Both the position numbers and the translations under genes were made by a program. 64,000 nucleotides of DNA from Octopus vulgaris (Eukaryota). The notes beneath the pieces were generated by a model. The model had not been told where the DNA came from, did not search any database, and was given only the letters and a program-made list of their open reading frames with translations. Below are positions 3,813 through 13,531 of the stretch, in pieces (position 1 is the stretch's first letter; the number at the start of each line of letters is the position of its first letter). The DNA is taken from NCBI GenBank assembly GCA_951406725.2, contig OX597826.1, positions 66,650,001 to 66,714,000 of the forward strand, given 5' to 3'.

Positions 3813-4074
3813 TTTTCGTTATTTGGCATCGACAATACAGCTGACTGAAAGGAACATCACCTTAACATCAAGCGACTCCTGACCTCTGCTCCCCGACCAA
3901 TACCGACTCATACAACCCCCTCCTCCTCCTCCTCCCGACTATTCACCAAACGTCCTTAATAACGCGAGAAAATAATGAGATTAAGGTAAAACAGCGAAGA
4001 ATCTAGAAAATGATGTTATTATGATGGATTAGCTCTTGTGGTTTTCAGGGATAATAACTGGGAAGGTGAGTTAA

Positions 4075-4324
4075 GTGATGGTGGTGGCAATGGGGATGGT
4101 GCTTGTGATGGTGATGTGTGGCGCTGTTGTTGTTGTTGTTGTTGCTGCTGCTGATGATGACGATGGTGTAAGTGTTGGTGATGATGATAATGATGATGAT
4201 GATGATGGTAATGATAGTTTTGGTGTTGACGATAATGACGGTGACGGTGATGGCGATGGTGGCATTGATGCCTTTCGTGATAATGATGGTGACGCGGGGA
4301 TATTGAGTTCGTCGTTGTTGCTGT

Positions 4325-4371
<47 letters not shown>

Positions 4372-4454
4372 TTGATGATGATGATGATGATGAGGAGGAT
4401 GATGACGACGATGGTGATGATGATGATAACGATGATGATGATGATGATGATGAC

Positions 4455-4518
<64 letters not shown>

Positions 4519-4865
4519 TCGATGCTGATGATGATGCCGACAATGACGACGACGATGATGATGATAACGATGATGATTATGATGATGATGATGATGAAGA
4601 TGACGATGATGATGATGATAACGATGATGATGATGATGATGATGACGATGATGATAATGATGACAATGATGCCAACGACGATGCCAACGACGACGCCGAT
4701 GATGATGGGTATAAAGAAGAGGAGGACAACCTTGCCGATGCCGATAAAATTGATGGTGATAATGGCGGTAATGATGAGGATGGTGGTAGCCGTAACAATG
4801 ATGATGGTGACGATGTCGATGACGACGACGACGACGAAGACGAGATCGATGATATTGCTGTTGCT
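4075..4865. repeat. Long degenerate (GAT)n/(GAC)n microsatellite
   Basis: Visible. Confidence 0.95.
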
Positions 4866-5416
4866 GAATACAATGTTTACAAACAGACACACAGACACGC
4901 AGGAACAAACACACCGCCACCCCACCCCCATTAATAACTAAATTAAAAACTGATTAATTATTGTTATCCAGTCGCTCCTTCCAATACGCCGCACAGTTTC
5001 TCCGCCTCCACCAACACTCCAAGCACCCCTCCTTTTCCAATTCACTTCCAGTTCCGCTCTTGCATCCGTGCATCCATCCATCCATCCATCCATCCATCCA
5101 TTCCCAATCCATGCCGCTGCCATTTTAACAGACCTTCCCAATTCCTCACACACATTCCTCCACCCCCATCTCATCCATTCCAGTTCTTCAACACCGTCCC
5201 GCCCACTCATAGAACTAATGTTGCAACAATTAAGATTATTAAATTGTCCAAATGTCTTTATATTTTATTTTCAAGTGAGGGCGCTGGCGTGTGTCTTTTG
5301 AGATTGAGGAACACATTATTAATATACCATTATTATATTATCCCCATTATTAGCCACAAGTGGCCAAACTGTTAGGGACGGTACAAAGGCGATGTATAGA
5401 TATGTATGTGTATATA

Positions 5417-5618: not shown

Positions 5619-5847
5619 ATTATACATTTATATGTATGTATGTATGTATGCATGTATGCATGCATGCATGTATGTATGTATGTATGTATGTATGTATGTA
5701 TGCATGTTTGTGCATACGTGTTGTATCGCACGTTCAACGTACGATATGACGGGATAATAAATAACATCCTCGTAAATCGTTCCACTCAAAATATACAATA
5801 CTTGTAATTAGACTCGACAATACGCAACTCTCGGCCTTACACAGCTC

Positions 5848-7525
5848 TATTTCTTTTATTTAGGCACATGGCCTTTATAAAGAGGGGACACCACCAGGAC
5901 ATACAAAACAAGACATTGGGGTACATATAAATGCATACCGGATGAATTATGAATATGATGTAAATGAGGATGAAATGACTTGCTTCTCCCCCAAAGCAAA
6001 TAGTTTCATTTTACTTTTTTTTAACATTACAGTTTTACTTTACAGTCTTGTATCTTTATTTCTAACACAAAATTACAACAAATACTGCACTATATCGTCA
6101 AAAATACTAAAGTGGTGATATTTCAACTCTTTTTTTTTTTCCAAATAGTTCTACTAACCTCTCCCCTCTTTCTTTCTCCAAAAGCACGCCCTTCTTACCT
6201 TCACGGTTCGCCAATTTTACTCTGATAACATTTTTCATTTTTGTTTCCCTCTTTTCAATTTCGACGCTTTTTTCATATATTACGCCCTGCAGGCATCGTT
6301 CTTTGATATCCTTCAGCACTCTCTTCGTCCGTCATAAATATCTCTGTTTCTACTTCCCTGTCTCTTTCGTTTCCTTCCTTCTTTCGTACTCCTACTTCCT
6401 TGCTAGTTGAAGGCGACGCTTCGTGCGTTTGCACTTCACTTGATTTTTCATTTGGTTTTCTATTTTTTCTATTTTCTTTCTTGTTCTCCTCTTCGTTTGT
6501 CTTTCTTTTTTTCTCTTTGGGGCATTTTTGTGGTGATCTCAAGTTCTTTTTTCTTTTCACCACCGTAAATTGCTCCTCCATTTTCTCTTCCTCTGCGGCT
6601 GTACTCTCTTCTTCTTGAATTTCTTTTTCTATTATTTCCTCCTCGTGTTTCTAGGGACACTTGGCCTTCATGTGTCCCCTCACTCCACACAAAAAACATA
6701 TTGGGGGTCTACCATCCACAACAATCCTCAATCTAGTCTCGTCCGGCAAAACCAGCTCTTCCTCAATCATATGAAGGTCTGGCAGGCTTATATGGACTGT
6801 TACCTCTAGCCCATATCCCCAACAGTTTACCTCCGTAGTTTTGGACACTTACAAAATTTCTGCAGCTTCCTCTGTATGTTAGAGGATGGCTGCCACAAGC
6901 CATGCCTCGTCAATTTCAGAGAGCACTCTACTTATCCTTACTCTGGCCGCACGTTTGACACAGTAAGTAGATAGTAGTGTCCACTCAGCTGATCTCAAGG
7001 CCACAGTGGAGTATTTATTAGCTTCATTTTCGTTTACAAAGCGCACTTCCACCGTGCCGAATTTCCGTCCTCTGGTGTAGAATGAGGTAAAGTCCTTCAC
7101 CTCTCTCAAACACTCCTTGACTGCTTCCACCGCTGCTTTCTACTTTCTTCGCTGCTATGTTTAATGTTCTGTAGATAATAGTTCTTTTCTCGGTATTCTC
7201 ACTGACTTCCTTGGGAGGCGTCAGCCTGAGACAGTCACCCACCTTTTTCAACAAGTCGTTATACTTCTTGAAATTCTTGTCTTTAACTTCTATTTCACGG
7301 ACTTGCCGTAGCTCTGCTGACAGGCTTTTGCCAGTCACTGCAGCATAATTGCCCACCTGCACTGGTCTATTATTCATCACTTCACCCATAAATGGGAAGA
7401 CAAATAAAAATTCCAACAAAATTCAAGAATAACAATGCAACAATTCAAGAAATAACAGGTTTACAATAACAGTACTCACATGGAACGTACACACTTTCAA
7501 CTCACTCAAACACAACGACGCGGAT
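5848..7525 (-). mobile_element. Full-length ORF1-only non-autonomous retroposon (HAL1-like, L1/Tx1-related), 1678 bp
   Basis: Exact 11-bp TSD TTACACAGCTC at 5837-5847 and 7526-7536. About 135-nt 5' UTR, ORF1 remnant, about 260-nt 3' UTR ending GGCCATGTGCCTAAATAAAAGAAATA. No room for an RT/endonuclease ORF2. Confidence 0.8.
6107..7389 (-). pseudogene. Disrupted ORF1 (RRM-like region, CCHC zinc knuckle, charged C-terminus), about 425 codons
   Basis: Track ORFs 7024-7419, 6879-7130, 6651-6848, 6273-6581 and 6107-6319 join via about 2 frameshifts and in-frame stops. CX2CX4HX4C motif CFLCGVRGHMKAKC at 6657-6698. Confidence 0.8.
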
Positions 7526-7623
7526 TTACACAGCTCAATGACTCCCACACACTCTGTGCATGTCCATTTATATTGTGGCACAGTCCATTAGGAGCCAGCC
7601 AAATAGGAGTGTTCTACTGTCAC

Positions 7624-7695
<72 letters not shown>

Positions 7696-13015: not shown

Positions 13016-13531
13016 AGGCGGCGAGCTGGCAGAATCGTTACGCACTGGGGTCGGTGCAATCGACTTAATCCGTTTGTCTGTCCTTGTTTGTCCCCTTTGT
13101 GTTTAGTCCCTTGTGGGTAGTAAAAAAATAGGTATTTACGGCGGCGAGGTGGAAGAAACGTTGGCACGCCGAGCGAAATGCTTAGCGGTATTTCGTCTGC
13201 CGCTACGTTCTGAGTTCAAATTCCGCCGAGGTCAACTTTGCCTTTCATTCTTTGGGGTCGATTAAATAAGTACCAGTTACGCACTGGGTTCGATGTAATC
13301 GACTTAATCCGTCTGTCTGTCCTTGTTTGTCCCCTCTGTTTTTAGCCTCTTGTGGGTAGTAAAGAAATAGGTATTTCGTCTGTCTTAGCGTTCTGAGTTC
13401 AAATTCCGCCGAGGTCGACTTTACCTGGGGGGGGGGGGCGATAGATTAAGTACCAGTTGCGTACTGGGGTCAATCTAATCGACTGGTCCCCTCCCCCAAA
13501 ATTTCGGGCCTTGTGCCTAGAGTAGAAAAGA
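13016..13531 (+). mobile_element. Tandem/nested cluster of SINE family B copies
   Basis: Repeated head, core and tail modules with junctions A-rich tail|GGTATTT. Confidence 0.85.

Follow-up and report, generated by a model that had tools for sequence, protein, structure and literature searches.

Non-autonomous LINEs consisting of ORF1 only, such as HAL1, HeT-A and Ag-Sponge, are known from the L1, Jockey and CR1 clades, and none of the ORF1-present non-autonomous LINEs listed in the accessible parts of these papers is derived from Tx1 (PMC5786205, PMC5753468). TRE5-A.2 of Dictyostelium is described as ORF1-only, mobilised in trans via a structured 3' end and position-specific at promoters, and TRE5 ORF1p binds TFIIIB in vitro (PMC3159450). 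Telomeric ORF1-only Jockey elements of Drosophila form head-to-tail arrays and found new ORF1-only families, in clades of two to six (PMC13534243). Target-specific LINEs of the Tx1 clade include Tx1, Keno, Tx1-Mar, Tx1-8_Crp and Tx1-4_AMi, with SINEU elements as passengers; their hosts are DNA transposons, U2 genes and LTR retrotransposons, tandem units are separated by the duplication, and host-driven transcription has been proposed for SINEU (PMC4494074). The yeast element Ty3 inserts at transcription start sites, as an LTR element with an integrase and at Pol III genes only (PMC6673722).

A repeat survey of O. vulgaris counts L1-Tx1 families, its accessible text giving no ORF1-only or TATA detail (PMC13282606). 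Our literature search returned no ORF1-only Tx1-type family in cephalopods, where one may be catalogued in Repbase, Dfam or the deposited O. vulgaris library, and no description of LINE insertion relative to a TATA box.

An ORF1-only unit inside a solo LTR

Within a 64,000-nt stretch of the Octopus vulgaris genome (the window), a decayed retroposon copy lies on the minus strand (Table 1); it belongs to a large ORF1-only family of octopus. The unit enclosed by two copies of the 11-mer TTACACAGCTC measures 1678 bp and terminates in AATAAAAGAAATA. The 11-mer has only these two exact occurrences in the window, but with one mismatch allowed, 28 of 100 shuffled sequences contain at least two matches by chance, and the repeat by itself is therefore weak proof. 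Host LTR copies without an insertion hold the 11-mer once, which identifies it as a true target-site duplication. A sequence-only reading of the window had proposed this unit with an exact 11-bp duplication; both are real, and the duplication may be 12 bp long with one mismatch. What that reading overlooked is that a single LTR supplies both flanks, one half on each side, and that insertions recur at this site. Joined by one 11-mer, these halves give a solo LTR of 222 bp that belongs to a Gypsy-type family. Sequencing contigs compared with the window contain empty-LTR joints, which probably come from other LTR copies.

Table 1. Features of the window element and its host LTR, with two edited-looking relatives (positions in the window unless a locus is named)
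Feature	Position	Strand	Remark
5' part of host LTR, begins TGTTGTGTG; TATAAA at 7572-7567	7537..7629	-	same sequence upstream in empty copies
Target-site duplication, 5' copy	7526..7536	-	starts 36 bp after first T of TATA box
5' UTR, 136 bp, T/G-rich	7390..7525	-	opening bases common to sibling L005, same LTR site
ORF1 remnant: predicted tandem RRM, CCHC knuckle, charged linker, C-terminal domain	6073..7389	-	fold from intact relative
CX2CX4HX4C zinc knuckle	6654..6701	-	Pfam zf-CCHC
Remnant of ~90-aa C-terminal domain, predicted ferredoxin-like alpha/beta plait	6073..6283	-	ORF1-only lineage only
3' UTR	5848..6072	-	
Stem of 4 bp with 5-nt loop (AGGC/GCCT), just before terminus	5862..5874	-	
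3' terminus AATAAAAGAAATA, without poly(A)	5848..5860	-	
Target-site duplication, 3' copy	5837..5847	-	
3' part of host LTR, ends GATACAACA	5719..5836	-	
A>G-rich copy L005, element	L005:1501-3109		
A>G-rich copy L022, element	L022:1501-3132		

ORF1 runs from an ATG at 7389 to about 6073 and is broken by three in-frame stops (7139-6273) and at least two frameshifts, so that it occupies three frames. The sequence-only reading correctly saw a damaged ORF1 with a knuckle (Pfam zf-CCHC, E 6.6e-4, slightly below the curated cut-off); its length of about 425 codons corresponds to an end at 6107, and about 435 codons are obtained when the last frame is included. As that reading also held, the unit lacks ORF2 and reverse transcriptase, no ORF2 match being found anywhere in the window. 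Separately, a long GAT-type trinucleotide repeat at 4019-4953 opens low-complexity frames in several reading frames, which are not a gene signal.

Searching genome G000 with the element gave 447 first-look candidates, of which 40 were scored, yielding 54 matches of 72-87% identity, the window excluded. Seven of 29 other fetched loci align with the window element nearly end to end in a single alignment. The 3' ends of the family copies halt at one common terminus, 5-7 nt past AATAAA, where they abut the duplication directly without poly(A). Two of 28 family copies have a sense-strand A>G excess, with 55 A>G against 3 T>C in L005, a sibling of the window element, and 77 against 7 in L022; the window copy has no such excess (8 against 4). 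This pattern resembles ADAR editing of RNA, pointing to an RNA intermediate.

Autonomous LINEs with the same tail architecture

Young autonomous LINEs with an intact ORF2 of 1140-1148 aa are present in tandem arrays at 5.3 kb. ORF2 contains the Pfam domains Exo_endo_phos (APE), RVT_1 (RT) and zf-RVT, and matches human L1 ORF2p with E 9e-65 and R2 with E 8e-25. On these matches the partner LINEs belong to the L1/Tx1 group, with an ORF2 closest to L1 ORF2p; the best 120 matches to the partner RT include no named Tx1 reference and are all unnamed or hypothetical. Arrays of such young, often intact elements run head to tail at C9:59207308-59250063, C5:29182088-29203719 and C2:73044918-73067302 of genome G000, with up to nine units.

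Autonomous ORF1 is homologous to the ORF1 of the lineage (33% identity, E 2e-29), and the autonomous LINEs terminate in AATAAAGAAAT or a close variant, sharing with the ORF1-only units a tail architecture of stem-loop followed by AATAAAGAAAT. A stem of at least 4 bp stands just before AATAAA in 35 of 57 ORF1-only tails and 8 of 9 autonomous tails, versus 11% of shuffles, these counts being taken over related copies that are not independent. Pairing is kept with different letters across families, a SINE and the autonomous LINEs. Homologous ORF1 and the same tail architecture make trans-mobilisation likely, and the window family was likely mobilised in trans by LINEs of the L1/Tx1 group. Autonomous LINEs sharing the 3' end exist as regards the terminus and stem-loop, whereas the body of the 3' UTR differs: among 30 loci fetched from the 40 best tail matches, no autonomous element carries the window family's own 3' UTR. 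Sequence patterns were also used to look for an autonomous element at the LTR site (5 matches) and at the SINE head (3 matches), but ORF2 lay within 1.5 kb of none of them. A looser pattern matched 115 times; of these matches 30 were fetched, and all but one proved to be plain starts of the SINE.

A SINE subfamily with the same LINE-type tail occurs nine times in the window, at 13017-13460 and in eight further tail matches, as copies nested in one another at the same internal sites. The label "tRNA-derived" for this SINE is our assumption, and ARAGORN found no tRNA in it. One autonomous family (L193-L212) has a single SINE-internal insertion site and a tail nearly identical to that of the SINE subfamily, and is therefore a likely partner of that SINE.

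Recurrent insertion sites and distance to TATA boxes

Full-length members of the host LTR family have paired TG...CA LTRs 4-6 kb apart, with protease, RT, RNase H and integrase between them (Pfam; L052, L060). Among the 19 other best LTR matches, five hold an insertion no more than about 15 bp from the site used in the window, and these insertions belong to several ORF1-only families. Both LTRs of the L052 element are filled: in this full-length Gypsy-type element (L052:1525-8895), one ORF1-only unit sits in the 5' LTR and two in tandem in the 3' LTR. L059 is similar, with more units.

The 35 distinct 3' junctions of the window family fall into this LTR (8), a SINE head (9), a third repeat (3) and 15 sites seen singly. 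Two copies in mariner elements, L002 and L017, nevertheless open with sequence of the LTR site, matching it at 16 of 17 and 16 of 19 bases; as L228 and L231 likewise begin with the site sequence of another host, this suggests transcription starting in the host. The 3' flanks of L093, L094, L095, L098, L123 and L131 are repeats with CTGATGA...GAAA behind a TATA box, and such repeats host both ORF1-only and autonomous elements. A search of Rfam found no hammerhead in these hosts, which we labelled "Penelope/retrozyme-type" by assumption.

In the window, the duplication begins 36 bp behind the first T of the TATAAA of the host LTR. The distance was assessed in 30 of 41 duplication-positive units, after nine tandem or internal units, one duplicate and one distant unit had been dropped; two tandem units remain in this sample. 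TATAWAW lies 22-38 bp upstream of the duplication start in 12 of the 30 units, across families, versus a background of 3.4%; seven control windows placed upstream each had it in 0-2 of 30, and 18 of the 30 units have none in the 22-38 bp range. With the looser TATAWR, 6 of 12 independent host clusters are positive versus a background of 5.6% (p 2e-5). The SINE-head cluster and one other host cluster consist mostly of units without a canonical TATA. Five of nine autonomous loci have their 5' junction 26-30 bp behind a TATA match, and seven do with a pattern widened afterwards. One autonomous LINE (L126:1087-6857), with a 17-bp duplication and a TATA-like box 28 bp upstream, lies in a U2 tandem, inserted 3 bp ahead of position +1 of a U2 snRNA gene. 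The enrichment is strong, but it is spread over 22-38 bp, with exceptions and a sequence bias, and transcription-start positions are inferred from the TATA distance and from U2 +1.

Relatives of the window element hit the spot behind the TATA box repeatedly, probably to use that promoter. One interpretation, which we advance only tentatively, is that the lineage, ORF2-free through deep divergence and having gained its own C-terminal domain, would be steered together with its partners to TATA/Pol II and snRNA starts by contact with the transcription machinery. Insertion would then be in the sense direction, each copy being driven by the promoter it landed on, and the private ORF1 domain would be a candidate for the tether.

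It is also possible, though we remain rather doubtful, that an ORF1-only lineage uses sites chosen purely by sequence through the endonuclease motifs of its partners, promoter-near motifs having been favoured since only transcribed copies found families. The families in the host LTR each have a fixed nick point of their own there, with spacings of about 10-14 bp, and the junctions of the window family are biased to about CGAGCTG at unrelated hosts as well. One autonomous family is strictly sequence-specific inside a SINE: its site, which lies some 45 bp into the SINE and is not a start site, was used in 16 of 17 loci read at the 3' end (of 20). Target choice in Tx1 elements is likewise ascribed mainly to the endonuclease in the accessible text of PMC4494074. 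A purely sequence-based choice fits less well with one family using several unrelated hosts, which have the TATA distance in common and not sequence, or with 8 of 35 junctions in an LTR that has only 152 first-look candidates, far above what a motif of 6-7 bp predicts. Between positional steering and evolved endonuclease motifs we judge the balance to be about even.

Absence of ORF2 and history of the lineage

An ORF1 search gave 13,578 first-look candidates, a figure that includes partners and fragments; 150 were scored, with identity down to 42% and neighbours 1.2-1.8 kb apart. Eighty regions were fetched and, with the earlier loci, provided 138 ORF1 units, some overlapping. The tail is present in 94 of these 138, and a duplication score of at least 10 was reached in 41 of 91 testable units versus 0.8% of shuffled flanks.

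No ORF2 start adjoins ORF1 in any of the 138 units, and ORF2 matches occur near ORF1 at four loci only. In L109, ORF1 of the lineage is fused to ORF2 from residue 732 onward (3' 1.2 kb) of another family; L153 and L164 have ORF2 fragments placed after other insertions or past the terminus; and L173 has an unrelated RT (25%) near ORF1. L109 was considered as the missing parent and rejected as a chimera. Other chimeras, in which the 5' half comes from one family and the 3' half from a different one, are seen in L020/L056, L057/L081 and L164, and may have formed by template switch or by recombination inside arrays.

Of 211 units found, shorter and near-identical ones were dropped, and the remaining 145, each with 170 or more aligned positions, entered a FastTree phylogeny. 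At its midpoint (support 0.97-0.99) the tree divides into a side with 119 of the 145 ORF1 units, all without an ORF2 start downstream, and a side with 18 ORF2-linked units and eight without nearby ORF2, four of these deep and poorly placed. With about 20 autonomous ORF1 units sampled and these four deep ORF1-only-type units on the autonomous side, the base of the tree is weakly placed.

These data bear on whether the window element arose by a one-off internal deletion of an autonomous LINE, or by repeated recent loss of ORF2 from living families. Internally deleted autonomous copies do exist (L200, L209, L210), and L109 combines ORF1 of the lineage with part of an ORF2, but that part comes from a family with a distant ORF1. 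The junction between ORF1 and 3' UTR is the same in many dispersed copies with their own duplications, a check that the sequence-only reading had proposed, and ORF2 is in place in none examined. ORF1s of the lineage are 38-86% identical to one another and 24-32% to sampled autonomous ORF1s, and their C-terminal domain has no match in 40 autonomous loci. Deletion or recent loss is thus largely refuted and very improbable. The earlier proposal that the element transposed as a unit of ORF1 plus 3' UTR agrees with the shared ends, the individual duplications, the missing ORF2 and the selected ORF1.

ORF1 protein and selection

Intact ORF1 frames of 431-463 aa exist in the lineage. Pfam identified zf-CCHC alone in ORF1, and a structural model of the N-terminal 240 residues (pLDDT 79) matched tandem-RRM proteins (best E 1e-4); the knuckle follows this region. 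L1 ORF1p is absent from the 12 PDB sequence matches to ORF1, a feature search gave ZCCHC3-type proteins at 0.90 as a lead, and the N-terminal piece had no match among longer proteins, which is weak evidence. Measured against five autonomous ORF1s, identity is 24-32%, and the 33% match given above widens the range to 24-33%.

The private C-terminal domain of about 90 aa has 37 matches among 1.84 billion representatives. No Pfam family is common to more than 2 of 38 members, and no sequence match was found in PDB and none in the Atlas. A model of the domain (pLDDT 83) matches only generic ferredoxin-like folds (Z 4-5.7), so function cannot be inferred from it. Eight of the ten named proteins looked up that have the domain are from O. 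bimaculoides and O. sinensis, and two Octopus proteomes list ORF1s of the lineage as host CCHC genes. An O. bimaculoides gene model (P0014) has the ORF1 knuckle and C-terminal domain inside a larger protein, which we take to resemble an RGS-domain protein, and is probably an annotation artefact.

Quartets comparing the window's group with its three nearest groups gave pN/pS of 0.12-0.15 on internal branches and 0.34-0.56 on terminal branches; deeper pairs gave 0.21-0.48, uncorrected for saturation. The low internal-branch values in an ORF2-less clade indicate that ORF1 was under purifying selection while ORF2 was absent, in line with the intact frames and the dN/dS below 1 for which the sequence-only reading had proposed to look.

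That the unit is instead a non-autonomous LTR element or gag-only internal region, flanked by its own terminal repeats and encoding Gag, is highly improbable: the flanks are LTR sequence and Gag can have CCHC knuckles, but the two flanks add up to a single LTR instead of being one LTR each, other copies are flanked by SINE, mariner or other sequence, and the protein is homologous to LINE ORF1 with a model that matches tandem RRMs.

Proposed mechanism

We therefore favour, with reasonable confidence, a decayed copy of an old, multi-family ORF1-only lineage that was likely inserted in trans via the shared tail and that lands in predicted start zones of other repeats, in this case a Gypsy LTR. 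A host promoter would transcribe the element, with the start within the duplication. ORF1p would coat its own RNA and be needed in cis, which would account for the conservation of ORF1, while ORF2p of a partner would bind the stem-loop/AAUAAAGAAAU tail and carry out target-primed reverse transcription. Site choice would combine a short endonuclease preference (about CGAGCTG here) with a bias to promoter-bound DNA. Since promoter and site would both survive at the 5' junction, later units could insert in front, giving head-to-tail arrays.

The conserved ORF1 with its lineage-specific domain provides a natural system in which to test what retains ORF1 in cis. If start-site targeting proves positional, it would be Pol II start-site targeting by a LINE system, an integration rule for LINEs that we did not find described and one relevant to promoter turnover in octopus. 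Such a rule is testable, as the genome has intact copies of ORF1 and ORF2.

Comparison with known systems

The octopus lineage is a fourth LINE group with ORF1-only passengers, on a large scale (13,578 first-look ORF1 candidates, partners and fragments included). Like the ORF1-present non-autonomous LINEs already known, it has an ORF1 selected without ORF2, and it shares terminus and stem-loop, not the UTR body, with its partners. A HAL1 ends in a poly(A) tail. The sequence-only description as HAL1-like holds in its logic, in that this is a multi-copy ORF1-only family, but not in its parts, since the protein is of RRM-RRM-CCHC type and not a mammalian-type L1 ORF1p, and poly(A) is absent. The octopus element works like HAL1 or TRE5-A.2, yet is not HAL1.

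As far as the accessible parts of the papers cited above describe these systems, HAL1, HeT-A and Ag-Sponge likewise have ORF1 only, keep a 3' end for a partner ORF2 and form their own families, and the octopus elements differ in their private ORF1 domain, their lack of poly(A) and their recurrent sites in repeats. Drosophila ORF1-only Jockey elements resemble the octopus lineage in their head-to-tail arrays and in ORF1-only lineages founding further families; they are telomeric, whereas the octopus units are interstitial and inside repeats, with at least nine groups in the sample. Ty3 is similar in its start-site insertion but differs as an integrase-bearing LTR element confined to Pol III genes.

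On the same partial texts, the Tx1-clade LINEs resemble the octopus lineage and its autonomous partners in using multicopy hosts as targets and in forming tandems. Unlike SINEU, the octopus passenger is protein-coding and uses many hosts linked by promoter position, with a partner that sequence matches assign to the L1/Tx1 group. TRE5-A.2 likewise has an ORF1-only structure and a structured 3' end, and it inserts at promoters, as described in the available portion of PMC3159450, but it is a close derivative of the living TRE5-A.1 and inserts about 50 bp upstream of tRNA genes, whereas the octopus lineage is deeply diverged from its sampled partners and inserts downstream of TATA boxes in the sense direction.
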